Shown: positions 22,881 to 42,955 of the stretch, one piece after another
Layout: every line of letters begins with the position of its first letter
Position numbering within the stretch: position 1 is the stretch's first letter
DNA from: Patescibacteria group bacterium
GTDB taxonomy: Bacteria; Patescibacteriota; Minisyncoccia; Phycocordibacterales; CAIRYW01
Length of the DNA stretch: 64,000 nt
Reading direction: 5' to 3'
NCBI GenBank assembly: GCA_040389185.1
Contig: JAZKAJ010000006.1
Span: forward strand, 2,914-66,913
Position numbers and translations under genes: made by a program
The notes under the pieces: model-generated
The model's database searches: none
Told to the model about the DNA's origin: nothing
What the model saw: the letters and a program-made list of their open reading frames with translations, nothing else

Positions 22881-22888
22881 AACTGGAG

Positions 22889-23431: not shown

Positions 23432-23484
23432 TTTTGATTAGATTTATGATTAAAGATTTATGATTTATGAATAAAACAAAAATC

Positions 23485-23991
23485 CTATTTGATAAATTGA
23501 TAATGTAATCTTACAATTCCTTCAGTTAATTTTTTGACTTCAATTAAATCTAATCTTGAATGGATATCAATATCTCCAAACAATTTTATACCTTTTCCAA
23601 ATACCTGAGGCTCAATATCAATATACACTTCATCTATCAAATTCTGTTCCAAAAATGCAGTATTCAAAGTAGAGCCTCCACCAATAACCATTTCACTCAT
23701 TCCTTTATTGCCACAAATCTCTACAGCTTCTTTTGGTGATGAAACAAAAACAGTATTTTGAGTATTGTCTAATGGAGTTTTTGTAACAACAATAGTAAAT
23801 GGATTCTCGAGTTTCTCAAATTCATTCACCTCTTTCATCATTTCATAAGTAGTTCGTCCCAGTACAATATTTTTTCTTTCTTTTATGAAATCATAATATC
23901 CCTTCCATACAGTATCTGACCAAGGAGCTTCGTTATTTTCCTTAGCAATGTAGCCATTGAGTGTCATCGCCATAAATAATATTACTTTCAT
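23485..23991 (-). CDS. dihydrofolate-reductase-family (RibD C-terminal domain-like) protein
   Basis: MAMTLNGYIA...VLGRTTYE...MVIGGGSTLNTAFLEQNLIDEVYIDIEP pattern of DHFR-like/RibD_C proteins. Confidence 0.75.
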   Translation of the reverse strand: MKVILFMAMTLNGYIAKENNEAPWSDTVWKGYYDFIKERKNIVLGRTTYEMMKEVNEFEKLENPFTIVVTKTPLDNTQNTVFVSSPKEAVEICGNKGMSEMVIGGGSTLNTAFLEQNLIDEVYIDIEPQVFGKGIKLFGDIDIHSRLDLIEVKKLTEGIVRLHYQFIK

Positions 23992-23992
23992 A

Positions 23993-25348
23993 TTATTTTA
24001 TTTCGTTAATTATTTTCATAAATTCATCATTTCTCACGTATTCATTTTTAAATAATCCAAAGGAAGCAAATGCGGGGCTGAAGAGGATTACATCGCCTGG
24101 TCGCGCTTCCTGCATAGCTTTTGTGATTGCTTCAAACAGGTTCTGCACAGGTACGACTGGAGCTGTTAACTGTAAGCTGTTAGCAGTTAGCTTTTCTGAT
24201 CCGGAGCCTGGGAGAAGGATGACAGTTTTGCAAGTTTTGTTTATTTTTTCCACAAGCTCATCTAATTCTAGTCCTTTGTCGCTTCCGCCCGCAATAAGAA
24301 TTATATTTCGGATTTCGGATTTCGGATTTAGTGCTTCCAAAGCGACTTCGGTCGCCTTTGGTGTTGTGGCATTATTATCATTATAAATTTTGACGCCATT
24401 TATTTCTTTTACAAACTGAAGTCTCCCTTCTACCCCATCAAACGTCTCTACCCCTTTTTTTATATCTTCAACACCAATTCCAAGTGCCCGGCAAGCTTCG
24501 ATAGCACAAGCAATATTTGAAATATTATGTTCTCCAATTATTTTTGGTTTCCAATCAGTTGGTACTTCCGACTTTCGTGCAATCACCATTTCCCCTTCGC
24601 CATGAGGTTTTGAAGCAATAACATTTGATATTGTTTCCCCGGCCACTAGAGTATCACCATGCTTTTGGTATAAATAAATATTTGCTTTGTCTGCAAAATA
24701 TCTTTCATGTCCTGACATCTCAGCGGTCGATTTGTAGTAGTTGGTATGGTCGTGCATAAATGCAGTAAAGACCGCAATATTTGGAGAGATCTTTGCATCT
24801 CCAAATCCCTGAAGCTGCCAGCTATCGAGCTCAAGTACGACGATTTCATCACCTATTATATCTTTAATGAATGGAAGGGTTGCCATATCACGAACATTTC
24901 CTCCAAGAATTGTTTTTTTACCGACACCTTTTAAAATATGATTGATGAGATGAGTTACAGTTGATTTGCCACGAGTTCCTGTCACTCCTACAATTACAAC
25001 TTCTTTTGGAAGAAGCTTACAAAAGAGTGATGAATCCATTTCGATCTGAATATTATTCTTTCTTGCTTCTTCTATATATATTGAATCGAGTGGCACTCCT
25101 GCACCTTTTAAAATAAAATCCCTATTATTGAAATCTTCAATAATATGCCCTCCAAGATGAAGCACAATGTTAGAATATCCTCTGAGCTTTTCTACAGAAG
25201 TCGTAAGCTCTTCTTCAGTCTTAAGATCCGTCACAATAAGTTCTGCTCCACATTCAGCTAAGAAAATAGCGTCTCCAAGTCCACGACCTAAGAGCCCTAG
25301 TCCTAATTGAGTTATTTTTTTACCTTTGAAATAGTCTTTATAATTCAT
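23993..25348 (-). CDS. murD: UDP-N-acetylmuramoylalanine--D-glutamate ligase
   Basis: LGLGLLGRG N-terminal Rossmann region, P-loop GVTGTRGKSTVTHL and Mur ligase C-terminal domain. Confidence 0.9.
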   Translation of the reverse strand: MNYKDYFKGKKITQLGLGLLGRGLGDAIFLAECGAELIVTDLKTEEELTTSVEKLRGYSNIVLHLGGHIIEDFNNRDFILKGAGVPLDSIYIEEARKNNIQIEMDSSLFCKLLPKEVVIVGVTGTRGKSTVTHLINHILKGVGKKTILGGNVRDMATLPFIKDIIGDEIVVLELDSWQLQGFGDAKISPNIAVFTAFMHDHTNYYKSTAEMSGHERYFADKANIYLYQKHGDTLVAGETISNVIASKPHGEGEMVIARKSEVPTDWKPKIIGEHNISNIACAIEACRALGIGVEDIKKGVETFDGVEGRLQFVKEINGVKIYNDNNATTPKATEVALEALNPKSEIRNIILIAGGSDKGLELDELVEKINKTCKTVILLPGSGSEKLTANSLQLTAPVVPVQNLFEAITKAMQEARPGDVILFSPAFASFGLFKNEYVRNDEFMKIINEIK

Positions 25349-26771: not shown

Positions 26772-28541
26772 TTATTGAATTTCAAGAATTCTCTTCAAAA
26801 TATCTTCTGGCACTTCCTTTTTTTCTTCCTGCTTTATTTCGGGTTTGATAGGTTCTTTTCTTTCTGGAGCTTTTTCTTGTACTGGAGAATGTCGCACTTC
26901 AACTGATCTAGGTTCACTTTTTGGGGCACTTTCAATATCATCTGATGATACAACAGATGCAAGAGCACTTCTGAGTTCTGCTAAATGTTCTTCAGAAGGT
27001 AATTTCTTTTCTTTAGGTTTTTGATTGGTTTGCCTGAGATAGCTAAGCGACACTGCTTTTCGAAGATCTCGCTCCCTATCATATGCCGGATCTCTTTTTT
27101 GTTCAGTGGGTTGTGAAGATGGTTGTACTGGTTTTGGTGCCGGAGCTTTGCCTAATACTGCTGCAAGCGCTTGATCTATTGGACTTGGTCGAGAACCAAA
27201 TTTTTTGTTACGATCGTCTCTTCGATTTTCTGAGGCAGAGATCTGAGCTTCTTCGTGCCAAGCTTTGATCTCATTTTCAACATCAGCACGAGGACGAGCA
27301 AATGTTTTTCGTGATTCAGCAATTATTTCTTCACGCATATTGTGCTCTGGCTTTGCGAGCGGAGGAAGTGTTGTAGCAGAGAAAGGTCGTGATGATACAC
27401 CATCGATCATAAGCTTTAGATAAATCTGTGCAAATCCAAGAGATACTAAGTCTTGCGCTGTAAAATAAGGTCCATACTCTTTTTCTAGAAATTCAGCATC
27501 AAAAGCACCGACTCGAAACGTAATCATTGTTCCGACGTTACCAAATACCGCAGCACGTACCTCTTCAGTCATCTGTTCGATATATTGATGTGCTACAGTC
27601 AGGTTCAATTTATATTTTCGAGCTTCAGAAAGAATATCTGCAAAAGATTCATTGGCAAAGTTCTGGAACTCATCTACATAAAGATAAAAGTTTGGAAGTG
27701 CATCAAGTTCAGCCTCTCTTTTGTCTGCGCGACTCATTGCTGCAAGATAAATCTTGGTGATGAGCATTGCTCCTAAAAGGTTTGCATTCGCTTCTCCCAC
27801 AAGACCTTTGGAAAGGTTCATGATAAGGATTTTCTTCCCGTCCATCATTTCTCGGATATCAAAAGTAGACTTTGGCTGGCCTATAATATTTCGAATCAAT
27901 GGATTAGAAATGAACTGACCAATCTTATTTTGAATTGATGCACCCGCTTCCTGCATATACTTTGGACCATACTTCGCAAACTCGTCCACCCAAAAAGACC
28001 TAACCGACGGATCAGTAATGTGTTCAATCACTTTTTTACGATAGTCTTCATCAGCTAAAATTCTATTTACACCAATCAGTGTTGAATCTGGATACTCGAG
28101 AAGTGCCAAGAGAATATTATTCAAAATATATTCCATTCTAGCGCTCCATGCATCCACCCAGATCTTTTTGAAAGCAGACATGAGTCCGTTTGCAACGAGA
28201 TGTCTCTTGTCAGGCCCTACATCTTCAAGCACATTGAAAGAGATCGGGTTATCGAGATCAAATGGCGCAAAATAAAGAACATCCTTCATTCGCGATTCAG
28301 GAACATATTCCAAAAGAAGATCGGCGGTCTTGCCGTGAGGATCGAGAAATGCCAGACCTCTTCCATCTTGGATATCTTGAACTGCGAGATTTTCGAGTAG
28401 AGTTGATTTACCCATACCAGTCTTACCAATGACGTAGGTATGGCGAGAACGATCTTTAATTTTGATACCAAAACGAAGTTTGCGATTGCGCGCATCTGTT
28501 TCGGCAAAATATACAACTTTGTTAGGATCTTCAGGATTCAT
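26772..28541 (-). CDS. P-loop ATPase of the TraD/VirD4/TrwB (type IV secretion coupling protein-like) / FtsK-HerA superfamily; soluble, with a low-complexity K/E/P-rich C-terminal tail
   Basis: Walker A YVIGKTGMGKSTLLENL, Walker B LYVDEFQNF, and the GxxxFxxxD/AHQ region of T4SS-type ATPases. No N-terminal TM helices. Confidence 0.55.
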   Translation of the reverse strand: MNPEDPNKVVYFAETDARNRKLRFGIKIKDRSRHTYVIGKTGMGKSTLLENLAVQDIQDGRGLAFLDPHGKTADLLLEYVPESRMKDVLYFAPFDLDNPISFNVLEDVGPDKRHLVANGLMSAFKKIWVDAWSARMEYILNNILLALLEYPDSTLIGVNRILADEDYRKKVIEHITDPSVRSFWVDEFAKYGPKYMQEAGASIQNKIGQFISNPLIRNIIGQPKSTFDIREMMDGKKILIMNLSKGLVGEANANLLGAMLITKIYLAAMSRADKREAELDALPNFYLYVDEFQNFANESFADILSEARKYKLNLTVAHQYIEQMTEEVRAAVFGNVGTMITFRVGAFDAEFLEKEYGPYFTAQDLVSLGFAQIYLKLMIDGVSSRPFSATTLPPLAKPEHNMREEIIAESRKTFARPRADVENEIKAWHEEAQISASENRRDDRNKKFGSRPSPIDQALAAVLGKAPAPKPVQPSSQPTEQKRDPAYDRERDLRKAVSLSYLRQTNQKPKEKKLPSEEHLAELRSALASVVSSDDIESAPKSEPRSVEVRHSPVQEKAPERKEPIKPEIKQEEKKEVPEDILKRILEIQ

Positions 28542-28580
28542 ATCATAGATATTATACCCTAAAATTTTGCTAAGATGAAA

Positions 28581-29762
28581 CTATTTATTCTTATTGGAAG
28601 ATAATTTCTTTTTTAGATACCTTGCTATCAAGAAAACAATAAGGAGATAGAGAATAATGTAAATCCAGTTAATGAGACCAAGTGACTGGCGAGTGTACTG
28701 TTCACCTGTAGGAATGATATCTAATCTTTTGTTTGATTTGAATATTCCAAAACGAGTAAGATGATCAACTGTAATAAACACTTTACCATCTTTAAATACA
28801 GCATCAGGAATGAGTGCCCAATGAATATTTCGCTCATTAGATTCATCAAGATAATATGCTCCCAAAAACTTTTCATCTTTTAGTTCTTGTGGAATATCGA
28901 TCGTAATTGTGATTGGCTTATTTAGATGATGAACTTCATTTCCATTTTGATCTTTTGCAACTATGTTAAAGATCGAACCACCTACAAGAAATGTACCGAT
29001 GCTTAATGTTGGAGTGGTTCGGTCTGATAGAGATTCTGGAGTTATAGTGATTGTGATATCACCATCGAAAGTCCCAGTAGGAATATCAACCGAAATCTTT
29101 TTACCATCTGGTGAGGTTGCAACAATTTGTTTACTCTCTCCTTGCTTGATTATTTCTGTAGTTGAATTTTTTTTCGAGTCTGTACCTGCATTGTTTATTT
29201 GAGGGGTATTAGATTTAGTATCATTTTGATTTGATTCATTACCTGAAGTATTCACATTATTGCTCAACGAACCTGACAGATTGTTTGTTAATGGTGGCGT
29301 TTGCCTATTTGAAAGAGGTCTCCAATCTGTTATCACATTACAATGATCACAATCAAAAGATACTCTTCCTACCGCACTTCCCTCTGTCCCTCCGGTACCC
29401 GTAAATTTTCCTGAACTATTTATAGTTACTCCGTCCATTGAAAGCCATCCGAGTCCCGCGACCCAGGCAGAACCTGACAAATGACCTTCCTTTGTGTTTA
29501 GAACACCTTGGTCCGAATTGGTTGGTGAAAAATTGATCCATCCAAGCACAGCACTCCAGGCATAGCCTGTAATTGCGGTATCGGAAATATGAAGTCCTGA
29601 ATATTCAGAATTTGTTTCTGGGGCAAAGTTGATCCAACCCATATTTTCGCCCCATGCATACTTTGAACCGCTTTGGATTGTCCCATTCGTTTCCGATGCA
29701 AAGACCGTCGTTATAGTGAAAGCAAGATATACAAAGAAGAGAAATGTAAATAATCTTCTCAT
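28581..29762 (-). CDS. secreted/surface protein with three Trp-rich GW(I)NF repeats and a C-terminal TM anchor
   Basis: Signal peptide MRRLFTFLFFVYLAFTITTVFA. Repeats YAWGENMGWINF / YAWSAVLGWINF / SAWVAGLGWLSM. An N/S/T-rich linker, then C-terminal INWIYIILYLLIVFLIARYLKKK. Confidence 0.55.
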   Translation of the reverse strand: MRRLFTFLFFVYLAFTITTVFASETNGTIQSGSKYAWGENMGWINFAPETNSEYSGLHISDTAITGYAWSAVLGWINFSPTNSDQGVLNTKEGHLSGSAWVAGLGWLSMDGVTINSSGKFTGTGGTEGSAVGRVSFDCDHCNVITDWRPLSNRQTPPLTNNLSGSLSNNVNTSGNESNQNDTKSNTPQINNAGTDSKKNSTTEIIKQGESKQIVATSPDGKKISVDIPTGTFDGDITITITPESLSDRTTPTLSIGTFLVGGSIFNIVAKDQNGNEVHHLNKPITITIDIPQELKDEKFLGAYYLDESNERNIHWALIPDAVFKDGKVFITVDHLTRFGIFKSNKRLDIIPTGEQYTRQSLGLINWIYIILYLLIVFLIARYLKKKLSSNKNK

Positions 29763-29768
29763 TGTAAT

Positions 29769-30332
29769 TTATTTTGCCTTACTTGTCGTCGCAGTTGCTT
29801 TGGGAGTAGGCTTAGTCTGAACTTTAGTATCTGCTGATGCACCAAGCGCACTTCCAGGAGCGGAAGAAAGGGGTCCAATATTTATGATTTTATTGATTGA
29901 TGGTCGATAAAGTACCGCTCGCATAGCAGCGGGAAAGATAACAACATCATCACCATTTTGTGCATCATTAAAAAATGATTGATCTTTGAGCTTTGTAATA
30001 TCAGAAACAGTAGCGAGCACCGCATTTGGATCATTTGGTACTACAGCTAGCTCTGAAATTTGTTTGATGACCTCTGCAGTCTTTTCTTTGGCAACAGCAT
30101 TTGGATCTTTGGTTAGTTTTTTATATTGCAAAAAATAATAAACCAAGCCGAGAGCTAAGGCAATAAAGAGAAGTATAAGTAAGTTTTTCTTTGTAACGAG
30201 TTTTTTTATTTTTTGCATTTTGCTGGTTTTGTTATTTGTTAAAACAATTTCTTCGTTATCAATGTTCATCCCCCCTGTTGGCACACCCCTACTTCGAGTA
30301 CGAACTAATTTAGGTTTTTCTTTATTTTCCAT
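29769..30332 (-). CDS. hypothetical single-pass (N-in) membrane protein
   Basis: About 55-aa basic cytoplasmic N-terminus, TM helix LLILLFIALALGLVYYF, then about 110 aa outside the cell ending in a T/A/K-rich tail. Confidence 0.45.
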   Translation of the reverse strand: MENKEKPKLVRTRSRGVPTGGMNIDNEEIVLTNNKTSKMQKIKKLVTKKNLLILLFIALALGLVYYFLQYKKLTKDPNAVAKEKTAEVIKQISELAVVPNDPNAVLATVSDITKLKDQSFFNDAQNGDDVVIFPAAMRAVLYRPSINKIINIGPLSSAPGSALGASADTKVQTKPTPKATATTSKAK

Positions 30333-30389
30333 TTAAATATTATATCTAAAGTAAAGCTATTTTCATAGTGTAAAAGTATCGCAAAAGAT

Positions 30390-32504
30390 TTATTTGCCCA
30401 TCAAATATAATTGTTTGATCTGGTCTGAAGTAAGTGCGGTTGTATAGGCACGAACATCATCAATCTCGCCGTCAAAAAAATCTCCGAAACCGCCCCACAC
30501 ATTACATCCAATACTAAATGTGTCAGGATTATCAGTGACATAATTACCGACACTTGCATTTGTTTGAGAAACATTCTGTCCATTAATATATAAAATCTGT
30601 TTTGAACCGTCCCCGACAAAAGCAACATGACTCCATTTATTAAGTGGTGCAGCATCAGCATCAAATAAAATGTTCCCACTCGATTGTGTCCAACCTGCAA
30701 TATTATTACTGCCGTCAAATCCAAATTCAATAGTATCATTCTGTCCAAAAAAACTAGTATGATCATAATTACGTGGGTAAATCCAGCCAGCAATAGTAAA
30801 TGCAGTTGGATTATTAAAGATCACGGCGCTTGTTGTAATACACTGATTACCTGTATTAAAATCAAACGCCTGTCCGATAACTCCAGGTGCGACAGAATTT
30901 TTTTGATCTGCACCAGAAAGGGTCCCGTCATTATTTTCCCCGCTTCTGTCATAAATATCAGCCTCACTACCATTTATCCAATGTGTATCCTTACCATCAA
31001 ACGACCAGAGTCCCTGAAGTCCGTCTGTTATCCGAGAATTTCGTGAATCATTTATTGTTGTATTTCCTCCTGAATGATACAGATTGTTAATCTCATTTGC
31101 TGATAATACACGATCATAGACCCTCACTTCATCAAGATCGCCGTTCCAATAATATGCACTATCAAATCCAAAACCAATACGAGCACTCCCGTTTGCATTG
31201 AGACTTAGAGTTGAACCCGTTCCTCCACCACTTAATACTCCATTAACATATAATTTTATTTCGCCACTTGTTTTTTCACGCGTCACACATCCAGATACCC
31301 ACGAACCAGTATTAACAGTTGCAGTGCTACTAAATGTATAATCTCCTATATTTGAATTACCATCGCCAAACACAAGCTTGCCATTTGAGTCTACCCCAAA
31401 CCCAAAATCATTTGTGACACCGCCCACTTCTGTATCGAGGATTGCCATGCTCTGCCAATGATTAGTACCCGATCCAACAGAAGTAGTTTTGAACCATGAA
31501 CAAATAGTAAAGTCATCAGTCGCAGGTCGTGAAATATCTATATATTGATTGGCGCCATTAAATTCAAATGCTTTACCTATCTTTCCATCCACCGAACCAG
31601 GAGAATTGGATGATGTGCCATTATTTCCTCCGCCACTCACATCATCTACAGTGCTGCCTGAAATTGTGTCTGGTTCAAAAGACCACCAGCCCGTAAGACC
31701 GTCTTTGGTAGGTGAAGTCAGAATTGTTGCAACACTATCAGTATTGCTCGAACGGAGTGCCCTCACTTGACCTGCTGAAAGCGCGCGATTATATACTCGC
31801 ACATCATCAATTGAACCTGAAAAAAATCCAGTATCAGCAGTACAACTCGCTCCTCGCGCAAGTTGTACATAAATAGAATTACCCGCTGCCGCAAAAGTAG
31901 GCTGTGCTGTTGTCGCTTTTAAAACTCCATCAACATACAGCTTAAGTCCCTCTGTGGAATTCCAAGTGGTGACCACATGATGCCAAATATTAGTTGTGGG
32001 TGTATCCTGCTCAGTCGCATATTTTGCAGATCCATCAAAAGAAATTGCAGAAAATTTTCCATCTGTGACAGCAAGAAATGGGATACACCAACCCAAGCCG
32101 TTTTCACTATTTGAGATATGAACAATATTTCCATTTGTTTCTCCGGGGTCTATCTTTGCCCAAGCAGAAATGGTATACGGAGCATCGGCAATACCTAAAC
32201 TTTCGATACTAGAATTGCTTTCGGCATATTGGTCATTTCCATCAAAGGAAAGTGCTTCACCAAACCTTCCTGGTTCAATCCATGAAGGAGGGGTTGCGCC
32301 GTAAAGAGTTCCCGAAACACTATTTCCAGAATTGTCAGCAAGTGTTGTGCCCGTTCCCTCATCAAGTTTCCAATTAAGCATTAATCCTCTATTTGCAGTT
32401 CCCAAAATTTTAACCGCACCATATGCCGAAAGACCGATAAGTAAAAGTGCGACAATAATCGGAATTGGAGTGATTTTTTTTCTCATTGATATTTTATTCT
32501 GCAC
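30390..32504 (-). CDS. secreted protein with three tandem concanavalin-A-like lectin/glucanase (LamG_3) domains
   Basis: Signal/anchor helix PIPIIVALLLIGLSAYGAV. Three repeats, each ending in the LamG_3 signature (FSGSIDDVRVYNRALSAGQV; WNGDLDEVRVYDRVLSANEI; FDGEIDDVRAYTTALTSDQI). Confidence 0.8.
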   Translation of the reverse strand: MQNKISMRKKITPIPIIVALLLIGLSAYGAVKILGTANRGLMLNWKLDEGTGTTLADNSGNSVSGTLYGATPPSWIEPGRFGEALSFDGNDQYAESNSSIESLGIADAPYTISAWAKIDPGETNGNIVHISNSENGLGWCIPFLAVTDGKFSAISFDGSAKYATEQDTPTTNIWHHVVTTWNSTEGLKLYVDGVLKATTAQPTFAAAGNSIYVQLARGASCTADTGFFSGSIDDVRVYNRALSAGQVRALRSSNTDSVATILTSPTKDGLTGWWSFEPDTISGSTVDDVSGGGNNGTSSNSPGSVDGKIGKAFEFNGANQYIDISRPATDDFTICSWFKTTSVGSGTNHWQSMAILDTEVGGVTNDFGFGVDSNGKLVFGDGNSNIGDYTFSSTATVNTGSWVSGCVTREKTSGEIKLYVNGVLSGGGTGSTLSLNANGSARIGFGFDSAYYWNGDLDEVRVYDRVLSANEINNLYHSGGNTTINDSRNSRITDGLQGLWSFDGKDTHWINGSEADIYDRSGENNDGTLSGADQKNSVAPGVIGQAFDFNTGNQCITTSAVIFNNPTAFTIAGWIYPRNYDHTSFFGQNDTIEFGFDGSNNIAGWTQSSGNILFDADAAPLNKWSHVAFVGDGSKQILYINGQNVSQTNASVGNYVTDNPDTFSIGCNVWGGFGDFFDGEIDDVRAYTTALTSDQIKQLYLMGK

Positions 32505-35500
32505 TAGGCTCTGGCACTTGAGATGATGGATCAGGTGTTAATTGTTCAGGATTAGGTGCCGGATCTTCGATTGGAGTTGGATCAGGTGTTGGCGCGTTTT
32601 CAGTTGGCTCTACGACCTCAGATGTTGTAGACCCTTCGTCTAAAGAGTTTACATCTTGATTTGAAGATCCACTATCTGATTCAGATGATGAATTTTCATC
32701 TGGTATAGAAATCATGTCTGGAGTAGTCGATGCATCATTCTTTGGTACAGGTGTTACACCTGCAGAATGAACCATTTGAATGAATTCTGCTTCAGTCACA
32801 CAAGTATCTCCAACACAAAGCTTATGGGTTGTAAATTGATCCGTAAATCCTGAAAGTTTGTCAGCAATTTCTTTGACCGCTTTTACAAGAATTGCAGTTA
32901 TCTTCTCATATCGCACTCCATGAACTGTCGTTCCATCTGCTTCAAGAGTTACAAGTCTTGGATCAACCGCATTTACTTCTTCCGCAATAAATCCAAGCTG
33001 TTCACCGCTGTAATTTGGGTTTGATTGAAGTGCACCATTGAATTCTGGCTTATAGAAGAATGAAACGGGATTCAATTTCATAAGTTCAGTCAAACCAGAA
33101 TCATCGGTCAATGAATTTATATTATCCTTAAATCGAAGAGATGAAGAACTACAATCACTGTTTGATCCAACAACTAATTCTCCGCTTGAATTGATACAGA
33201 GATATGAAAGCTGACCTTCATCTGATACTGGCAAGTTTTCCATTCGAACACCTGTATTTTCAATCCCTCCTTCTCCATCATCTTCGCCATGGACTGTGAG
33301 AATTGAAAGTCCTGCGATTGATGCCGTGTATGATTCGACTGTTCCTTGTGATGCATCACCAGAAATTGGAAGGTCAACCCACGATACTGCGCCCGCATCT
33401 TCAGCAAATGTGAGAGCCCCCATAGAAAGATTATCTATACTTGTTACTCCTGTTGTACTGTTATAAAGGAATGATCCGTTACCTATTGAGACATCACCAG
33501 TATTGTAGGCAATCCCTCCATCAAAATCCGTCCATTGACTACCTGTGAAGAGCTGTCCGTGCTGATAAAGATTGCCGCCGAAGTTAATATCTCCGTTTAC
33601 ACCACCTGTAAAATCAGTCAGTGTAATATTTGCTGAATGATGAGTAGGGTGTATTTGAGGATTATTCTCATCATCAGGAAGAATATTCCATACATTACCC
33701 GAAGCGCCAGCACTGAGCTGTTCAATAATAATATTATTACCAACTCTAGTCGCGCTAAAATATCCACCATTATTAATAACATTTACAGTTGTATTAATAG
33801 TTTCAGAAAGTGTGTCCCCGATTGGTATTGGATATGCTCCTGAATTGGTGTCATTATCATCAAATTCATAAGCATGCATGCTATTTTGACTATCAAAAAG
33901 AAGGAACGCATCTCCATCTATTACTTCACCAATTGTAAGTGTTGCTGTTGCTTTAATTGCTCCAACATCAAGATTAAAAGCCGGATCGTTTGTGCCGATG
34001 CCAACATTGCCACCATTAAATAGTGCGGAATAATTTTTTGGAGCATTGAGCACTACTATACCGTTATCACCATCAGCCACAAACAAAACATCCTTGTATG
34101 CTGCGACCGCATATGAATCTCCATCAGTTGTTCCGTAACCAATAGTTATAGGATTATGAGGGTATGAAATATTTATCGCATAGACACTGTCTTCCGCACC
34201 ATCAGCAACATAAGCAATATTTCCAGAAATAGTGATTCTTGTATTGTAGCGCCAGTCACCAATAGAAGTGCTACCAACTTTAACCAAATTTTCTGGATCG
34301 GACGCATCAAATACAACAAACCCTTCTCCATCATCAGTATCACGGGTGGCATAGACATAATTTCCTTTTGTTGCAATACCGCCATCAAAATAATCTGCTT
34401 CGGAAGGGTATAATGACATTTGTTCAAAATCAGTTGGATCAGTAATATCTACTACCTCGATTTCAGTGTCTTCCTCTAGATATGCGTAGTGTCCATTATC
34501 TGAAATTGCGATTCGGTAAGCACTATCATCTGCTTGATAAGGTTCAGAGAAAAACACTGGATCACCCGAATGTCCATGACTGATAGCAGATACATTGAGA
34601 GCATAGAAATAACCGTTATTATCTGTCACGTACACTATTCCATTTTTAACTTGAATATCTTCAATTTGTGCAGGACCTTCGTCAGATACACCAAGTAGTA
34701 TTGGAGTCTGTGAGGTGTCATTCACATCAAGAACATAAACAGAATTCCCAGCCGCAACATAAGCAATATCACCCACAACACGAACGGCAGTTGGTGTTAC
34801 GTTATCTCCTTGGAAATCATAGTAGGTGAGAAGTGTCTCATCTACGGGATCGGTAATATCAAAAATATCGAGATGGTAACCATCGACAGAATAGAGTTTG
34901 TTGCCAGATACCACAAGATCCATAACCCCAGTTTGTACATCGTGATATCGAGTGATCTGTGAAAATCCAACACCTGCACTTCCACCAACAACATCGAGTC
35001 CAGCATGCGGTGTATTGGTACCTATACCTACATTGCCGTTAGTATAATCAATTCCATCTTCATTTGTATTCCACTTCGAATCACCACCGGCAATATCAAT
35101 CCATTCACCTTCATTATCAGTAGTATAGTACTGCATCGTCTTCGTATCTGTATTGAAAATAATTTGATTGTTGGTCGGAGATTCTATATTATCACGCTCC
35201 ATCGTAGTAAATGATTGCATATCACCTCCCGTACAGTTACCGAGATTTTGCATACAAACAGTATCAATGCCGCCCATTAGTGATTCAAGTGATGGCAATT
35301 GGTAGCCATAGTGCGCATCATCATCGCCAGATAGGAAAAAAGATGCGGATTCAGTATGTCCAGGATCACTCGTTGTGAATTTGATTCCTGTTGCATCTGT
35401 AATTTCACCCACATCAGCACCAATAGAAACAGAGACTGGTGCATTCGAAGCCATTATCGTAAGTCCAGGCGCAGTTCCCGTCTCTTCAGATCTCATGAGT

Positions 35501-38500
35501 GAGACATTACTGATAGATCCAGAAAAGGCACCTCCTATTGGCATGAACTCAACAGTAAACGAATCGGCAGACCCATTAAGAGTTGAAGAGAAGCTAACAT
35601 CCCCATTACCTGCTGAATAAGTATTACAGGTGTCTTCTGAAACACTTCCAATGCATGCTTCTATCTCACCCTCACCTTCACCTATGGTAAAGCTGAGTCT
35701 ATACTCTCCCGCATCGAGACCATCACCTTGAGAAAGATTTGAGCTCTCTCCCACTTCTGTATGAAAGGTCGCAACCGCACCACTTCCAGATGTTGCAGTA
35801 AGACTGTACCCTGCTCCGTCAGTGTATCCATCACCCGCTGTAAGAATGGTGTTGCCATTGAATCCTCGTATCGCACCTGAAGGAACATCCTGAGACAAAT
35901 AGCCACCACTTCCTGTACCCCCTGAAACAACTTCATTCATATCACTACCGAAACTTGCTGTATTTGAAATAATCGATATCCCAACAATTGCACCATCTCC
36001 ATCTACAGAATCAACACTCAAAGTTGCGTCTCCATTAAATCCGGATACAGTAATCGTATCCCCTTCGGTATATCCGGAACCGGCAGTCGAAACACTGAAG
36101 CTATCCGGCACCCCACTAACAGAAAGAATCTCCATTGTTGCATCTCCATTTCCACCGTCAACATGCACAATTTCATCTGGAACATATCCTGAACCACCAT
36201 CTGTCAATTCGATAAAACTAGTAATTGGGCCTGATGAATCAGTCGCCTCATCAGCCACAACATCATTGTCATCATAGGACCAGCCATCACCCAACATCCA
36301 ACCAACAGCGTTTCCATCAAATGATCCATTTGTGAGTTCTTCCACATTGACACTTTCTGAATTAGAAGTCTGCCGGATCGTCAAATTTGCATTACTCAAC
36401 TCGGTCGTGTTGATACCCACCTGACCTAAATGACCAAGTGTCATTGAAGTATGATCATCATCAGCACCAAAAACGAGATCACCGTCACTGTTTAAAAATA
36501 CCCCCATTTCTTTATCAGTTCCGGCCAAGTCATTTTGAAATGTAAGCCCCCACGGATTACTGTCAGTCGTATGAATATTCAAAAGTGATGGATACCCTCC
36601 CGCAAATTCTCCTGAACCATCACCAAAAATTTCAAGTGTAGATCCGGGAGTAGTGGTGCCAATTCCAACATTACCAGATAAAAAATTAATTCCACTTTCA
36701 TTACCGTTCCATGCTGAATCACCCGACCCGCTACCGAAATCGGTCCACTCATCACCATCACCACTATTTCTGAATTGCATTGTGCCATTGTTATTGCGAA
36801 TACCAAAACCACTCTCGCCGACAGCCGTGCCAAAATTGAAATAGCGTCTATGAAATTCATCATCAGTGCCACCAATGAGTACATCTCCTCCCGATGTTTT
36901 GAGGGCGAGCTCAGGATTTTGATCTGTACTCAAGGTAAGTGTATGAATCCCCCCATCACCTGCCGCAAGTATGATTGTACTTCCCGAAAGTGCTACTGCA
37001 TCTGAATCACTTTCACTGTTGTAATTGGCAAGTTGCGTTATATTTGCCGGATCGCTCACATCAAAAATGTAGAGACTATCTGGAGCTCCATCAGCAACAT
37101 ACGCATAATTATTTTTAATCACAACAGATCCGTTATAGCGATAAGATCCAATATTCGCATATCCTGCAAGAGTAATGTTTCCATGATTAATACTATATAC
37201 AACAAAACTTTGCGTTGCATCATTCACATCATTTGTCGTATAGAGATAGCTACCAGAAATTGCAGGGCGCCCTGTCAGATTACCGTCGAGCGCAAAATCT
37301 GTAATGAAAGTTACGCTGTGGTTGGAGCCGATAGCGTATGAAAAAATATCTGACCCTGATGTTACATATGCATAACCGTCATCAGAGAGTGCAATACCTT
37401 GCGCAGATGCTTCGCTTTGACTCAGATCAACGACTGTAACCGGGGCATCAATTGTAGAAATATCGATATCAACAAATCCTTCATTGGTTGCCGCATATAG
37501 ATCATTTCCCTTTACAGCAATATCATTCACATTAAAATTACCGTGCCATACAGCAAGAGAAATAGGGTCCGATGCGTCCTCGAGGCTAAATATTTCGATA
37601 TCAGTTCCCTCAGCAGCAAACAGGTAATCCCCATTACTCGATATTGAAAGACGGCTCGCTCCATCACTCGTAGGAGCGACGGAGCTTACAGCGGTCAAAT
37701 TGCTCGGGTCACCAATACTTGTGATATCTATAGAATTTCCACCATTGCCGATTGAATACGCATAATTACCAAGCATGACAACATCCTTTGTATCACCAAG
37801 ATCAGACTTAGTACCTAAAAGCTCAAGCGCGAGCGCTCCTCCAGTACTCGCATTGACGGAAAGTTTTGCATCATTTGAAGTGCTACCTATACCCACAAGA
37901 CCTTGTGGTAAAAAGTTTATTCCCGATCCGACATCTGTCCATTGTGATGAAGTAATACCCTCGGTACAATTGCCGAGATATTTCATACAAAATGTATCGT
38001 TGCCGTCATCCACTGTTAAAAGAGAGGGTAAGACATACTCATATCGAGAATTATTATCATCTGGAAGATAGAGTGATGCTGCGTGAGAATTTCCACTACT
38101 ATCGATTGTTTTTATTAAAAAACCATGCTGACCTTCTTCACTGTTACCTTCTTCATTATCTATCCCCAAAGAAAGAGATGTACGATCGTTTGGAGCAAGG
38201 AATGTTAACCCTTGGACTTCTCGACTCATAACCGAAACATTATCAATTGTTCCATCAAAATCATTTGATGGACTAAAACTTATTTTTTGATTATCGTTTT
38301 TATGCCATTGACCACTGAAAGATACATCACCTTCCCCAGCATCAATTGTTTCGCAATGCCCGCCACCGAGACACACAAAAACACTCCCGTTTGAACCAGT
38401 GATAGTAAATGAAACATCATATGTAGCCCCCTCATTCAAATCACCTGTCTGATAAAGTGTTTTATTAACATCCTCATCATAATCAGCAGGAGCAAAGACT

Positions 38501-39777
38501 GCTGCGCTTTCATCATCATTCCACCCCAAGCCCAAATGCCATTCTGATATACCATAATTAAATCCTCCATCTGCGATTTGGTCCTCAGCGCCCGGATCCC
38601 GCTGTTGGATCGTCAACGTTCCTCTATCACCCACACGTTCACCACTTCGAGCATAATTAGTTGCATCACCTACGGTAGCCATTCCTGTAATATCAAGAGT
38701 ATCATTTACCGCAAGACCTCCAGTGTCACTACGGAGCGCACCATTCCTGCCCACTATAAAATCCGCCTTGTTGCTTGGTAACGAGTCTTCATCATACACT
38801 CGCAAAAGATCAACATCTCCCGCACTCCAAATCGCTGTCATATCACCATCCGCATAAAATCCGCTCCCTTCATTATTTTTTGTACCCTCTATCCAAATAC
38901 CACTACTACCTGTATCTTCTGGATCTGGATCAGGATTCGGATTCCAATGTTGCGCCTGACCATAGAGACCTGTTGGACCGTAGTGAATACCTCCAGTGTT
39001 TATTGCAGGATTACCAAAAAACATTGATCCATTCGTTAGCGTGTCTCCAGCAATCGAGAGAGAATAGTTTTTATCAGGCGCAACACCAATACCAACAGTC
39101 CCATATGTCTCATCGACTGCAAGTGGAATACCATTTGGCATTGTTTGTGAATCAACAGTGAGCCAATCAACATTATTATTATCTGAAAAAGAAGTTTCAG
39201 TAGTATCTATATATGCAGTAAATGAGGTACCTCGACTATATTCATCCTCTGTACCATCTGCACCAATGCCAGAATGAAAAACTCTGTAACCATCCGCACC
39301 ATCTACAGGATCCCAAGAAATAGCAAAATTATAATTTCCCTCAACTTGATCCAAGTTTACTTTTAAAAATTTTTCTGTGTATGTACTTGAGTACAACCGC
39401 AGACCATCTCCAATGTTTTTATAGGAGTAAACACGATAGGCATTAGTAAATGGATAGTGGATGTCAAAAGATTCTCGTCCATAACCCCCGTCCTCACTTG
39501 GAGACATCTCAACACTGACAGATGTAGGGGCCGCAATCTCATGAGCGAGCGTACCAATGTAAGTGACTCCATTTAGAGAAAAAAGGTTGCCAGGCTCAGC
39601 AATTGAGACCGTACAATTCTCATTTGTCGGGGCACATTCAGGGTTCAGTGTCTCGCCTTGAGAATATGGTTCACCACTCCATGTTGCAAAAGCATTTTGT
39701 GAAAGAGAAAAAGCACAGACAATAAAAAAAACAAGCAAAACACCCTGTGCTCCATTGCTTTTAAATATCTGTTTCAT
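32494..39777 (-). CDS. giant (2427 aa) secreted surface fibre protein: two LVIVD beta-propeller modules, LamG-like modules, tail-fibre-like W..D..GNVGIGT motifs, and a C-terminal intramolecular-chaperone (peptidase S74-like) self-cleavage domain
   Basis: Signal peptide MKQIFKSNGAQGVLLVFFIVCAFSLSQNAFA. LVIVD-type repeats (YVADGAPDSLYIFDVSDPANITQLANY; HLDIFDITDPVDETLLTYY; IAYVADGAEDSVYAINISYP). Internal duplicated modules ending FDGTIDNVSVM / FSGSISNVSLM. IMC motif SSLRFKDNINSL...LMKLNPVSFFYKPEF...GFIAEEVNAVDPRLV at about 32850..33150. Acidic/Pro-rich C-terminal tail. Confidence 0.8.
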   Translation of the reverse strand: MKQIFKSNGAQGVLLVFFIVCAFSLSQNAFATWSGEPYSQGETLNPECAPTNENCTVSIAEPGNLFSLNGVTYIGTLAHEIAAPTSVSVEMSPSEDGGYGRESFDIHYPFTNAYRVYSYKNIGDGLRLYSSTYTEKFLKVNLDQVEGNYNFAISWDPVDGADGYRVFHSGIGADGTEDEYSRGTSFTAYIDTTETSFSDNNNVDWLTVDSQTMPNGIPLAVDETYGTVGIGVAPDKNYSLSIAGDTLTNGSMFFGNPAINTGGIHYGPTGLYGQAQHWNPNPDPDPEDTGSSGIWIEGTKNNEGSGFYADGDMTAIWSAGDVDLLRVYDEDSLPSNKADFIVGRNGALRSDTGGLAVNDTLDITGMATVGDATNYARSGERVGDRGTLTIQQRDPGAEDQIADGGFNYGISEWHLGLGWNDDESAAVFAPADYDEDVNKTLYQTGDLNEGATYDVSFTITGSNGSVFVCLGGGHCETIDAGEGDVSFSGQWHKNDNQKISFSPSNDFDGTIDNVSVMSREVQGLTFLAPNDRTSLSLGIDNEEGNSEEGQHGFLIKTIDSSGNSHAASLYLPDDNNSRYEYVLPSLLTVDDGNDTFCMKYLGNCTEGITSSQWTDVGSGINFLPQGLVGIGSTSNDAKLSVNASTGGALALELLGTKSDLGDTKDVVMLGNYAYSIGNGGNSIDITSIGDPSNLTAVSSVAPTSDGASRLSISSNGDYLFAAEGTDIEIFSLEDASDPISLAVWHGNFNVNDIAVKGNDLYAATNEGFVDIDISTIDAPVTVVDLSQSEASAQGIALSDDGYAYVTSGSDIFSYAIGSNHSVTFITDFALDGNLTGRPAISGSYLYTTNDVNDATQSFVVYSINHGNITLAGYANIGSYRYNGSVVIKNNYAYVADGAPDSLYIFDVSDPANITQLANYNSESDSDAVALSGSTIILAAGDGGIHTLTLSTDQNPELALKTSGGDVLIGGTDDEFHRRYFNFGTAVGESGFGIRNNNGTMQFRNSGDGDEWTDFGSGSGDSAWNGNESGINFLSGNVGIGTTTPGSTLEIFGDGSGEFAGGYPSLLNIHTTDSNPWGLTFQNDLAGTDKEMGVFLNSDGDLVFGADDDHTSMTLGHLGQVGINTTELSNANLTIRQTSNSESVNVEELTNGSFDGNAVGWMLGDGWSYDDNDVVADEATDSSGPITSFIELTDGGSGYVPDEIVHVDGGNGDATMEILSVSGVPDSFSVSTAGSGYTEGDTITVSGFNGDATLSVDSVDGDGAIVGISIISNTASFGSDMNEVVSGGTGSGGYLSQDVPSGAIRGFNGNTILTAGDGYTDGAGYSLTATSGSGAVATFHTEVGESSNLSQGDGLDAGEYRLSFTIGEGEGEIEACIGSVSEDTCNTYSAGNGDVSFSSTLNGSADSFTVEFMPIGGAFSGSISNVSLMRSEETGTAPGLTIMASNAPVSVSIGADVGEITDATGIKFTTSDPGHTESASFFLSGDDDAHYGYQLPSLESLMGGIDTVCMQNLGNCTGGDMQSFTTMERDNIESPTNNQIIFNTDTKTMQYYTTDNEGEWIDIAGGDSKWNTNEDGIDYTNGNVGIGTNTPHAGLDVVGGSAGVGFSQITRYHDVQTGVMDLVVSGNKLYSVDGYHLDIFDITDPVDETLLTYYDFQGDNVTPTAVRVVGDIAYVAAGNSVYVLDVNDTSQTPILLGVSDEGPAQIEDIQVKNGIVYVTDNNGYFYALNVSAISHGHSGDPVFFSEPYQADDSAYRIAISDNGHYAYLEEDTEIEVVDITDPTDFEQMSLYPSEADYFDGGIATKGNYVYATRDTDDGEGFVVFDASDPENLVKVGSTSIGDWRYNTRITISGNIAYVADGAEDSVYAINISYPHNPITIGYGTTDGDSYAVAAYKDVLFVADGDNGIVVLNAPKNYSALFNGGNVGIGTNDPAFNLDVGAIKATATLTIGEVIDGDAFLLFDSQNSMHAYEFDDNDTNSGAYPIPIGDTLSETINTTVNVINNGGYFSATRVGNNIIIEQLSAGASGNVWNILPDDENNPQIHPTHHSANITLTDFTGGVNGDINFGGNLYQHGQLFTGSQWTDFDGGIAYNTGDVSIGNGSFLYNSTTGVTSIDNLSMGALTFAEDAGAVSWVDLPISGDASQGTVESYTASIAGLSILTVHGEDDGEGGIENTGVRMENLPVSDEGQLSYLCINSSGELVVGSNSDCSSSSLRFKDNINSLTDDSGLTELMKLNPVSFFYKPEFNGALQSNPNYSGEQLGFIAEEVNAVDPRLVTLEADGTTVHGVRYEKITAILVKAVKEIADKLSGFTDQFTTHKLCVGDTCVTEAEFIQMVHSAGVTPVPKNDASTTPDMISIPDENSSSESDSGSSNQDVNSLDEGSTTSEVVEPTENAPTPDPTPIEDPAPNPEQLTPDPSSQVPEPSAE

Positions 39778-40722: not shown

Positions 40723-40730
40723 AGAAAAGA

Positions 40731-41324
40731 TTATGCCTTTGCCTTTGCCTTTGCCTTTGCCTTGATTTGTGCAACAGCATCATTAAATCCTATCGGCGTA
40801 AGGGACGCACCTGATACTTTTGTAAGTCTTATATTTGCTATATTTTGTCCAACGACAAATTGCTGGTATCCAGAGATAAATCTGTCTTGATACCTTGATG
40901 ATGTGTTATCACCCGCACCGTTTGTCACAGTAGCACTAGTCACAATATCATTTGAAATTGTGAGAGTTACACCAACAGTATCGGGTCCGCCCGGAGATCT
41001 GTAACTTCCCGTCGCTGAGTAAGTACCATTTTTATATACACTTACTGTAGTAGGTTTTTTGGTTGTGTCAGCTGGTGGAGTTGTGACTGCAGGGGTAGTC
41101 TGTTTTACAGGAACATTATCTTCTTGCCCGTCATCGCCAAAATCTCGCGTCTCCTCGACTGGTACACCCGTGACACTTTCTTGAGGTGCAATATCTGTGT
41201 ATGTTTGTTGAGATGGATTATTATTATCTTTAATACTAAAGATAAGTGCATATGCAATCCCGCCAAGAACAATTATCCCAATAACAATTCCAACTATTTT
41301 ATTTGTTTGATTTTGTGAATTCAT
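40731..41324 (-). CDS. membrane-anchored FMN-binding-domain protein, a likely substrate for ApbE flavinylation; C-terminal (AK)n tail
   Basis: N-terminal TM helix, T/P-rich linker, FMN_bind-like domain with flavinylation-type motif LTKVSGASL ([S/T]GA[S/T]). C-terminus AKAKAKAKA. Confidence 0.7.
   Translation of the reverse strand: MNSQNQTNKIVGIVIGIIVLGGIAYALIFSIKDNNNPSQQTYTDIAPQESVTGVPVEETRDFGDDGQEDNVPVKQTTPAVTTPPADTTKKPTTVSVYKNGTYSATGSYRSPGGPDTVGVTLTISNDIVTSATVTNGAGDNTSSRYQDRFISGYQQFVVGQNIANIRLTKVSGASLTPIGFNDAVAQIKAKAKAKAKA
40735..40764. repeat. hexanucleotide tandem repeat (GCCTTT) x4 plus one imperfect copy, encoding the (AK)n tail
   Basis: atgcctttgcctttgcctttgcctttgccttg. In-frame, so slippage would change tail length only. 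Confidence 0.8.
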
Positions 41325-41794: not shown

Positions 41795-42913
41795 CTAGAG
41801 CAGTGCGAGTACCCTTCGAGTGATCGATCCGACATATCCTACAATAGGTGCAATGGTATGCGCAATTTGAAATTTAATTACCGCCGCACGCGTCGCAGAG
41901 CCAAAATATCTTGTTTCATTGCCGATAGATCCCGCTCCACTTTGTGATACCACGAATCCGTGGTTATTTAGCCATACCTGAAGAGCATATACATCGTCAC
42001 CAGTAATTCCCAAATAAAGGTCTCTTGAGAGCAATAATCCACTGCTACCATTTGCAGGAATTATATTTAGATCATCAATCGCATCGACAATAGGTTGAGG
42101 TAATTCAATACTTTCATTTTTTGCATCAATAAATACACTTCGAAAGTTTTTTACCAAGAATTTAGATAACTTATCTTCATCTGTGGTTTGTTTTAATATT
42201 TGAGTTAGATCATCAATTTTGTCTTCTAGAGATAATTCTTTTGTAAGTCGAGGAAATGGATCGACAGGAGTACCTGAGTTATCGTGTATCTCGAAATGTA
42301 AATGCGCTGGTCCACCCGCCGCATTACCAGTATCACCTACATACCCTATTAAGTCACCGGCTTCCAAGACAAGTCCAGATACTACCCCTTCACCAATATG
42401 ATCTAGGTGCATATATACAAAAGTTTCTCCTCCAGGGTTTGCAGTGTATACATAGTTACCCTCTGTCTCGCCCACTCCCGTACGAATCACTACCGCTTCT
42501 GTCGGTGAAACAATTGGCGTACCTAAAACAGCCATAATATCCTCACCCTCATGTGTTCGCCCATCAGACCGAGGATCACCAAAATTCGGTGATATGTCAC
42601 TTATTCCTACGCCAAAAAGCACTGGCATAGAGACTGTTTTATCGGAAGTATCTGGAAGGGCACTTATTTTCTTTTGAAGTTCGCTTGATTGTCCACGATA
42701 TTGTCTTATTTGAATTTGTCTGGTAGTTGAAGATTCGGCAGAACCATCAGTATTATATAGAGTCCTAAAATAACTATACCGAGTCGATGTTGATGTGGCA
42801 GCGAACGCAAGAGTTGGCAATATAAAAATTGCCATCAGAATAACGAGTTTAAATGTAGAATATTTCATTGTTTGTTTAGTTAAAAAATTAGACAGCAGAG
42901 GTGATAGAACCAA
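41795..42913 (-). CDS. M23-family metallopeptidase with a C-terminal peptidoglycan-binding domain; start probably Met at 42868 (MKYSTF)
   Basis: HEGEDI (HxxxD) and HLHFEIH (HxH) M23 motifs. C-terminal PG_binding_1 (DDVYALQVWLNNHGF...RYFGSATRAAVIKFQ). Confidence 0.85.
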   Translation of the reverse strand: MVLSPLLSNFLTKQTMKYSTFKLVILMAIFILPTLAFAATSTSTRYSYFRTLYNTDGSAESSTTRQIQIRQYRGQSSELQKKISALPDTSDKTVSMPVLFGVGISDISPNFGDPRSDGRTHEGEDIMAVLGTPIVSPTEAVVIRTGVGETEGNYVYTANPGGETFVYMHLDHIGEGVVSGLVLEAGDLIGYVGDTGNAAGGPAHLHFEIHDNSGTPVDPFPRLTKELSLEDKIDDLTQILKQTTDEDKLSKFLVKNFRSVFIDAKNESIELPQPIVDAIDDLNIIPANGSSGLLLSRDLYLGITGDDVYALQVWLNNHGFVVSQSGAGSIGNETRYFGSATRAAVIKFQIAHTIAPIVGYVGSITRRVLALL

Positions 42914-42955
42914 TCCATCTATATTATAGAAGACGGGTTGGTATCGATATGATTA

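Follow-up and report, generated by a model that had tools for sequence, protein, structure and literature searches.

Five neighbouring minus-strand genes in a 64-kb stretch of Patescibacteria DNA (contig JAZKAJ010000006.1, positions 2,914 to 66,913; the whole stretch is hereafter called the window) encode a VirD4/TrwB-like ATPase, a membrane-anchored protein that we call the GW protein, a small transmembrane (TM) protein, a protein with LamG lectin domains and a giant fibre protein. The original prediction took the five for one co-directional module in which the ATPase would be a part, or the motor, of a fibre export or host-attachment system. Only a portion of that module survives comparison with other genomes: the giant, LamG, small TM and GW genes do recur together, whereas the ATPase gene does not recur with them. 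We consider it probable that the five genes fall into two unrelated units, a Sec-dependent adhesion fibre cassette on a force-releasable anchor and, beside it, a block of genes that begins with an orphan ATPase. To our knowledge, little has been established about host attachment in Patescibacteria apart from type IV pili. A misleading hypothesis of ATPase-driven export is here replaced by a defined cassette, in which an S74 fibre, variable at its tip, is accompanied by a lectin and by a GAIN-like anchor that probably cleaves itself.

The ATPase and its genomic neighbourhood

The neighbourhood of the ATPase gene was compared across 80 species-level ATPase loci from GTDB genomes, which were searched with all window proteins. 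No homologue of the GW, small TM or giant protein was found in any of these 80 loci, and a LamG homologue was present in a single one, where it did not adjoin the ATPase gene. The genes that do accompany the ATPase are of another kind. A GT4 gene lies near it in 49 of the 80 loci, and lies downstream of it in 42 of the 59 that have enough downstream sequence, with two more glycosyltransferase (GT) genes present in 46-48 and Mur ligase genes in 28-34 of the 80. The usual upstream neighbours encode a MurC-like protein, an RsmI-like protein, another small TM protein and a DUF4015 putative glycoside hydrolase, the last of which is found upstream in 46 of 62 loci.

The closest relatives show the same separation. 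In two loci whose ATPases are 88% (L081, from Ca. Taylorbacteria) and 85% (L083) identical to that of the window, the gene order is M23 - DoxX - hypothetical - ApbE - ATPase - GT4 - ... - MurD-like - ... - MurC-like - GTs, which equals the flanks of the five genes in the window gene for gene, with ApbE abutting the ATPase gene and the cassette absent. Three further loci (L168-L170) carry an ATPase of 82% identity. In two of them DUF4015 and Na/H exchanger genes lie upstream, the exchanger gene directly next to the ATPase gene, and the contig of the third begins at the ATPase gene; in every one of the five closest cassette-free relatives with downstream sequence the ATPase gene precedes the GT4/Mur-ligase block. 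Since ApbE abuts the ATPase gene in cassette-free relatives, positions 28581-39777 (~11.2 kb) of the window represent an insertion between the ApbE and ATPase genes. No tRNA was found at the borders of this insertion, and no integrase gene was present among the ORFs (open reading frames) covered by our Pfam scan, which comprised 56 ORFs and included most of those of at least 100 aa across the window.

The five-gene synteny is thus lost both in the 80 ATPase loci and in the five closest cassette-free relatives, and on this synteny, together with that of 84 GW loci described below, the ATPase was rejected as a part of the module. It is an accidental neighbour of the cassette and the first gene of a conserved block, ATPase - GT4 - Mur ligases - GTs. 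A motor role finds no support either: synteny is lost, and the four surface proteins all carry Sec-type N-terminal signals, so that no dedicated motor is needed for their export.

It could still be argued that an ATPase resembling type IV coupling proteins (T4CPs) energises export or assembly of the fibre and lectin from a five-gene operon, since the genes adjoin in one direction, with a gap of 39 nt and no clear terminator between cassette and ATPase, and since exaptation has been proposed for the orphan T4CPs of Patescibacteria (PMC12102498). The same five-gene order is also seen outside the window, in locus L171. However, L171 is ~98% identical at the nucleotide level and belongs to the same lineage; it shows that the juxtaposition is stable and is not independent evidence, and in every other relative the ATPase gene and the cassette lie apart. 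The scanned window ORFs include no membrane channel partner for this soluble ATPase; the supposed cargo proteins are Sec-signalled, and the ATPase gene has a conserved -10 element of its own. We therefore regard an ATPase-driven appendage as extremely unlikely. Nor is the shared direction of the genes distinctive. They lie within a minus-strand run of ~34 kb and ~30 genes (10481-44178), which makes the borders of the five-gene group arbitrary, and tightly spaced genes on one strand are the local norm and no signal of a module.

Transcription signals are consistent with this separation. The -10-like element GGTATAAT ahead of the ATPase start codon is kept in the cassette-free locus L081 when the two sequences are compared, so the ATPase gene probably has its own transcription start point and could be transcribed independently of the four genes upstream. 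Counting this one, such boxes precede the start codons of three genes, those for the giant, the small TM protein and the ATPase, at a distance of 6-9 nt (6-8 nt for the giant and small TM genes, the latter with a TATAAT 6 nt ahead, at 30339-30344), which suggests several start points across the five genes. A single polycistronic unit was set aside in view of these boxes; a scan for consensus promoters and terminators, which returned 47 sites against 45 expected in shuffled sequence, was no better than chance and does not decide the matter.

The ATPase itself is a widespread orphan, a soluble VirD4-like (T4CP-like) ATPase with more than 8000 homologues in Patescibacteria at 55-88% identity. Its Pfam matches, to T4SS-DNA_transf, TrwB_AAD_bind, TraG-D_C and DUF87, are weak but above threshold, and a sequence-profile search of the PDB gave a marginal match to TrwB only, so that its identity needed a fold search; it has the RecA-like nucleotide-binding domain of the T4CP/VirB4 clade. 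Both Walker motifs named in the original prediction are present, A as GKTGMGKST at aa 39-47 and B as VDEFQNF, and its description of a soluble protein with a long disordered tail also stands, as no hydrophobic segment is present and the model is of low confidence after ~aa 430. This tail ends in a conserved peptide, KEVPEDILKRILEIQ (consensus KEVPEDVLRRILEI). No N-terminal TM domain is present, Walker A starting already at aa 39, and no VirB4, channel or relaxase gene of a type IV secretion system (T4SS) lies near the ATPase gene among the scanned ORFs of the window. Such isolation is common, as only 148 of 5,713 Patescibacteria T4CP homologues lie near virB4 (PMC12102498). The recurrent company of envelope genes across Paceibacteria hints at a role of this ATPase in envelope biogenesis rather than in conjugation, and its synteny with envelope-glycan and Mur-ligase genes offers a concrete lead to its function.

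The fibre cassette and its probable anchor

The four remaining genes recur without the ATPase. Other cassettes (L084, L086/L087, L088 and L164) encode a giant LVIVD and S74 protein of 1298-2892 aa (2228-2892 aa in L084, L086 and L088), behind which come the genes for a small TM homologue and a GW orthologue, in this order. In L172/L173 all four members are present, in the order S74 protein - LamG/PA14 protein - small TM protein - GW orthologue, and in L085, which lacks a small TM gene, the order is a 444-aa handle-bearing ORF, a 496-aa S74-bearing ORF and, directly after it, the GW orthologue. The flanks differ among all of these loci, and the ATPase gene is in none of them; the cassette is relocatable and occupies different chromosomal sites in different genomes. 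Across 84 GW-domain loci, a small TM homologue stands directly upstream in 20, an S74-type C-terminus occurs in 19 and LamG in 3, and an ATPase homologue is near the GW gene in just one, on the opposite strand and with 41% identity. The LamG gene occupies the same cassette position in L171 and L172/L173 and is absent from the L084/L086 cassettes. The core is made up of fibre, small TM protein and GW protein, and LamG is an optional fourth member. As a separate observation, a 251-aa ORF with a weak RVT_1 (reverse transcriptase) match (L172, 4577-5332) overlaps the S74 fibre gene from immediately upstream, and could be a diversity-generating retroelement (DGR) or a group II intron remnant; the window has no counterpart of it.

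The GW protein represents a large family. It has 541 database homologues, and a profile built from 33 full-length homologues (alignment A2) finds 9,396 representatives of 50%-identity clusters (E<=1e-3). Neither Pfam nor NCBIfam has a family for it, and Pfam returned no match for 33 family members even at E<=5; a family of more than 9,000 sequence clusters therefore lies outside the coverage of both. In the label 'GW-repeat protein' of the original prediction the anchoring is borne out, but the protein has no Pfam match to Listeria-type GW modules, and the label is descriptive only; Listeria-type modules and known carbohydrate-binding families were both discarded as identifications after Pfam and NCBIfam gave no match. 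By the same token, the four non-ATPase products had been described as secreted or membrane proteins with carbohydrate-binding folds, and an N-terminal signal or anchor is indeed present in all four, but the GW protein has no Pfam carbohydrate-binding match.

An AlphaFold2 model of the GW protein (pLDDT 85.7) divides it into a signal peptide (aa 1-23), a beta-hairpin-repeat domain of ~125 aa, a disordered linker, a beta-sandwich of ~150 aa and a C-terminal TM helix. Each 'AW....GWINF' forms one modelled hairpin, and the hairpin domain contains two conserved cysteines. The C-terminal domain has, in this model, a beta-sandwich fold of the GAIN_B/ZU5 (MAIN) type. The putative cleavage site HL/T is positioned in a beta-turn between modelled strands 327-334 and 337-342, ~20 aa before the TM helix; behind this helix follows a cytoplasmic tail of ~8 residues. 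H334 and L335 are nearly invariant in A2, and a motif H[LFV][ST] occurs within the last 110 aa of 55 of the 120 best homologues, in the form HLT in 50 of those 55. Anchoring by sortase through an 'IPTGE' sequence was dismissed, because this motif is not conserved in A2 and no Pfam sortase match was obtained among the scanned window ORFs.

The GPS site of adhesion G protein-coupled receptors (GPCRs) reads HL/T-x-F-A-V-L-M. In position and predicted chemistry, the HL/T of the GW protein is that of this GPS site and of the HX(S/T) site of MAIN domains. MAIN (microbial GAIN) domains undergo autoproteolysis, after which the fragments are held together non-covalently, and force-dependent release of MAIN surface proteins has been proposed (Brogan & Rudner, May 2026, bioRxiv 10.64898/2026.05.12.724683).

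The neighbourhood link between the GW protein and the fibre is the N-terminal handle of the latter. The handle motif stands directly behind the signal peptide in 39 large ORFs that neighbour GW-domain genes and range from 196 to 2892 aa, and each of the 39 shares its strand with the GW gene. Of the 14 GW loci flanked by 6 kb or more of sequence on each side, 13 have a handle ORF. The 39 ORFs were found in 0.79 Mb of GW loci, compared with none in 1.24 Mb of control Paceibacteria DNA. A second layout of GW loci (L091-L167, e.g., L113, L121, L135, L145, L151, L157 and L158) has a GW-domain protein of ~660-800 aa, then a ~120-aa gene, and a large handle-bearing protein 2-4 kb downstream, so that the pairing of GW domain and handle exists in at least two cassette layouts. 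The co-occurrence of the handle is our main evidence that GW-domain proteins and large handle proteins probably work together, and the handle could be a docking or a sorting signal.

An alternative is that the four surface genes encode independent adhesins co-located in a variable surface-protein island, with the GW protein and the fibre not touching. Several facts speak for it, as the evidence for a GW-fibre interaction comes from gene neighbourhood, the GW domain is combined with many different C-terminal parts and neighbours, and the MAIN proteins reported to date have adhesion domains of their own, so that no partner is needed. Yet the gene order and strand are very consistent, the handle and GW genes co-occur far above background, as described above, and the fibre, once its signal peptide has been removed, has no recognisable anchor. 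We consider independent adhesins unlikely, if a serious contender, and retain the reading in which fibre and GW protein belong together.

The giant protein consists of a signal peptide, the handle motif, two LVIVD beta-propeller regions, a series of modules that start with 'GNVGIGT..P', a variable tip, the S74 domain and a Pro/Glu-rich tail. Its N-terminus is hydrophobic at aa 7-32 and forms a predicted cleavable signal peptide, and the Pfam matches are to LVIVD (2.6e-14) and Peptidase_S74 (3.7e-09; 37.2 bits against a cut-off of 22 bits). S74 chaperones of phage tail fibres and endosialidases (K1F endosialidase, T5 pb1) fold the trimer and then remove themselves. The corresponding motif in the giant, S2212-SLRF-K2217-DNI, contains the putative catalytic serine and, five residues downstream, a lysine; self-cleavage is predicted before Ser2212, and the pattern SDxRxKxNI, with both the serine and the lysine, is kept in homologous giants.

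Both S74 domains and modules that begin with 'GNVGIGT' are characteristic of the tail fibres of phages, and the S74 region, alone among the parts of the cassette, matches tail-fibre proteins of cyanophages; on these grounds the cassette might be a degraded tail-fibre module of a prophage or tailocin. We find this highly improbable. The fibre carries a cleavable Sec signal, no other phage genes flank the cassette in the window, in L084-L088 or in L172, the flanks are housekeeping genes, and GW-family relatives are absent from 2.9 million viral contigs.

The cassette of the window can be compared with that of its close relative L171 in detail. Nucleotide identity is 98.3% in the flanks, but falls to ~91% between window positions 29917-33934 and L171 positions 6350-10416, with 305 nt not aligning. 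This low-identity segment covers both the small TM and LamG genes and, beyond them, the 3' end of the giant gene. At the protein level, identity of the giants is 66-74% at aa 1901-2100 and ~100% elsewhere, and that of the second LamG domain is 77-79%; the result is a recombination mosaic whose variation centres on the tip of the fibre and on the second of the three Laminin_G_3 (ConA-like lectin) domains that make up the secreted or signal-anchored LamG protein (Pfam 3.5e-80). Localised variability of this kind is typical of receptor-binding tips. An attachment role of the surface genes, as envisaged in the original prediction, is plausible in that the differences between strains cluster at the tip of the fibre and in one LamG domain.

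A DGR was considered as the source of the tip variability and rejected. Substitutions between the window and L171 are of all types, with no A-bias, no template/variable repeat pair was found and no reverse transcriptase gene was present among the scanned window ORFs. The sequence comparison points to allelic replacement rather than a DGR.

The small TM protein (187 aa), for which 78 homologues were found, crosses the membrane once, at aa 45-71. A basic N-terminus of 45 aa precedes this TM segment, and behind it come a conserved domain of ~70 aa, which is extracytoplasmic, and a low-complexity tail; a homologue of the protein is directly upstream of the GW gene in 8 of the 10 loci with a full-length GW orthologue. 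It was not accepted as a LytR_C protein, because it aligns only to the part that precedes LytR_C in longer homologues. The basic cytoplasmic N-terminus, together with an analogy to adhesion GPCRs and to bacterial SEAL/RsgI systems, would allow the GW protein and the small TM protein to be a mechanosensory signalling pair, in which a force-shed ectodomain triggers a membrane signal. In the examined cassette loci, however, we found neither a linked cytoplasmic signalling domain nor a site-2 protease or sigma factor, and the cytoplasmic tail of the GW protein is very short, so that we think a signalling pair highly improbable and continue to regard the two as parts of an adhesive cassette.

Gene layout and other features of the window

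The coordinates of the genes and of the features discussed above are listed in Table 1. The five minus-strand ORFs of the original prediction are borne out by the ORF list of the window. Their spacing, from the ATPase gene towards the giant gene, is 39, 6 and 57 nt, followed by an overlap of 11 nt between the LamG and giant genes; this overlap holds with the GTG start of the longest ORF, but becomes a gap of 7 nt if the ATG at codon 7 is used. The ATPase gene had been called the first of the five, but transcription runs from the giant gene towards the ATPase gene, which is the last. The five genes are flanked by housekeeping and envelope genes, encoding Mur ligases, GT4, ApbE, DoxX and an M23 peptidase. 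Pfam bore out the domain calls of the original prediction (a T4SS-type ATPase and three LamG domains) and assigned LVIVD and Peptidase_S74 to the giant, and the stated lack of accompanying T4SS or type II secretion components also held among the scanned ORFs, which gave no match to a type IV pilus or sortase gene either.

Table 1. Positions in the window of the five genes, of selected features within and between them, and of the phosphonate genes.
Feature	Position	Strand	Remarks
VirD4/TrwB-like ATPase gene	26772-28541	minus	not a cassette member
-10-like element GGTATAAT	28551-28558	minus	9 nt upstream of ATPase ATG
GW protein gene	28581-29762	minus	core cassette member
C-terminal TM anchor and basic tail (GW protein)	28602-28688	minus	hydrophobic aa 359-387, modelled helix 361-392; conserved across A2
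GAIN_B/ZU5-like (MAIN) domain (GW protein, modelled)	28698-29165	minus	aa ~200-355
Predicted cis-autoproteolysis site H334-L335/T336 (GW protein)	28755-28763	minus	followed by R-F-G-I-F
Small TM protein gene	29769-30332	minus	core cassette member
LamG protein gene	30390-32504	minus	optional cassette accessory
Giant fibre gene	32494-39777	minus	2427 aa; first cassette gene
Peptidase_S74 intramolecular-chaperone domain (giant)	32788-33144	minus	Pfam aa 2212-2276, profile positions 1-57 of 58
Strain-variable distal tip (giant)	33478-34377	minus	aa ~1801-2100, just upstream of predicted S74 cleavage site
N-terminal handle of mature fibre (giant)	39604-39684	minus	aa 32-58, TWSGEPYSQGETLNPECAPTNENCTVS; family motif Y.PGETLNP.C.PTD.NC.V
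CTP-transferase/PEP-mutase fusion	14294-15643	minus	phosphonate set
Fe-alcohol dehydrogenase	16630-17760	minus	phosphonate set
TPP-dependent decarboxylase-like enzyme	17763-18893	minus	phosphonate set

A TATAAT-like box 3-9 nt upstream of the start codon is a feature of many genes throughout the window (e.g., 28551-28556, 30339-30344, 2452-2457 and 41923-41928), and a Shine-Dalgarno-like motif was seen at only 6 of 62 tabulated starts. Both features suggest that leaderless or near-leaderless transcripts are frequent in this genome.

Several observations concern the surroundings of the cassette and of the ATPase block. Further secreted peptidoglycan-binding proteins are encoded at 53317-54510 and 41795-44178 (a protein with PG_binding_1, fn3 and InlB B-repeat, an M23 peptidase with PG_binding_1, and a protein with PG_binding_1 and DUF4398), and their domains indicate a rich set of wall-associated surface proteins. 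Between the DoxX and ApbE genes, positions 40731-41324 encode a conserved 197-aa membrane protein, which L081 and L083 have as well; its terminal (KG)n tail comes from an 'aaggc' tandem repeat at the 3' end of the gene (~40725-40760), and the weak, sub-threshold NCBIfam matches of the protein to GltJ and to a pilin-like conjugal transfer protein are probably due to low complexity. On the other side, genes for an FMN reductase and a RibD_C/DHFR-like protein separate the MurC-like and MurD-like ligase genes (21546-25348), an unusual insertion into a Mur-ligase pair; in L081 an FMN reductase likewise stands between both ligases. The phosphonate set (14294-18893) is embedded in an envelope-glycan region of ~25 kb (1748-26587), which also encodes several GT4 and GT2 proteins, a Wzx-like flippase, a TagF-like glycerophosphotransferase, polysaccharide deacetylases and an FkbM methyltransferase. 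This gene content suggests that the surface glycans of this Patescibacterium may be phosphonate-decorated.

A proposed breakaway attachment system and its known relatives

The features of the cassette suggest how its products might act together. All four leave the cell through the general Sec pathway, as their signals show, with no dedicated motor. By analogy with phage fibres, the giant would trimerise by means of its S74 chaperone, which would then cut itself off at Ser2212, and removal of S74 would expose the distal, strain-variable tip for binding to the target surface; the LamG protein could add lectin-type binding. The fold, the motif and the published biochemistry of MAIN proteins suggest that the GW protein cleaves itself at L335/T336, just outside the membrane, and that its ectodomain is then held non-covalently until it is pulled off by force. 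Finally, the beta-hairpin domain of the GW protein, perhaps together with the small TM protein, could dock the N-terminal handle of the fibre, and the whole would form a breakaway attachment organelle.

A number of points weigh against this scheme and against the separation of the two units. L171, too, has the cassette adjoining the ATPase gene; there is no convincing terminator between the two, so that read-through is possible; and insertion in the lineage of the window is favoured over deletion in its relatives on grounds of parsimony. With regard to the anchor and the fibre, the docking of the handle to the GW protein is proposed from gene neighbourhood, and the autoproteolysis of the GW and S74 domains is a prediction. 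Some ZU5 domains, e.g., that of ankyrin, do not cleave. Moreover, the cleavage motif is carried by 55 of the 120 best GW matches, and many GW-domain proteins have no MAIN domain, from which it follows that the GW domain works in other contexts too.

A more far-reaching proposal, which we put forward tentatively and hold to be possible rather than probable, is that GW proteins and handle giants are a widespread, Patescibacteria-specific two-component organelle, in which the disulfide-stapled handle of an S74-matured trimer plugs into a pre-cleaved GW anchor. If the cassette works in this way, attachment to a host or particle could break under load without tearing the tiny cell. It would also constitute a major undescribed attachment system of episymbiotic bacteria, given the more than 9,000 clusters of the GW family, and it would show GAIN-type mechanics at work in bacteria, with the ligand borne by a subunit of its own.

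Comparison with known systems places each component. The kinds of protein involved, MAIN-anchored surface proteins and S74-matured fibres, are already known, and it is their combination that is widespread in Patescibacteria. The ATPase differs from VirD4, TrwB and TraD in lacking their N-terminal TM domain, in its long disordered tail with a conserved C-terminal peptide, in its unusual degree of conservation, and in its synteny with DUF4015, GT4 and Mur ligase genes instead of T4SS or relaxase genes. Phage S74 fibres and tailspikes share with the giant a C-terminal S74 domain with Ser...Lys, a modular fibre and a variable region just before the cleavage site. The giant, in contrast, is a cellular protein with a Sec signal peptide, LVIVD propellers and a conserved handle, has no virion genes nearby and has a GW partner whose family is missing from viral contigs.

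The GW protein most resembles the MAIN proteins, such as Bacillus subtilis YfkN, with which it shares the order of signal peptide, binding domain, GAIN_B/ZU5-like sandwich and surface anchor, as well as an HX(S/T) motif in a beta-turn between the last strands. The vast majority of MAIN proteins are anchored by sortase signals or by cell-wall-binding or SLH domains (bioRxiv 10.64898/2026.05.12.724683), whereas the GW protein is anchored by a C-terminal TM helix. It is also smaller (43 kDa, against a mean of 158 kDa for MAIN proteins), its motif is HLT, as in adhesion GPCRs, where YfkN has HFS, its ectodomain is an uncharacterised beta-hairpin domain, and its gene lies in a fixed cassette with a separate giant fibre. 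From the GAIN/GPS region of adhesion GPCRs it differs in having a single TM helix instead of seven, no helical GAIN_A and no GPS disulfides, and from Listeria GW proteins in having beta-hairpins of ~30 aa instead of an SH3-like module of ~80 aa. Patescibacteria do not appear in the main text or in the accessible parts of the supplementary tables of the MAIN preprint (bioRxiv 10.64898/2026.05.12.724683), and the GW protein extends MAIN domains both to Patescibacteria and to TM-anchored proteins with a separate fibre partner.

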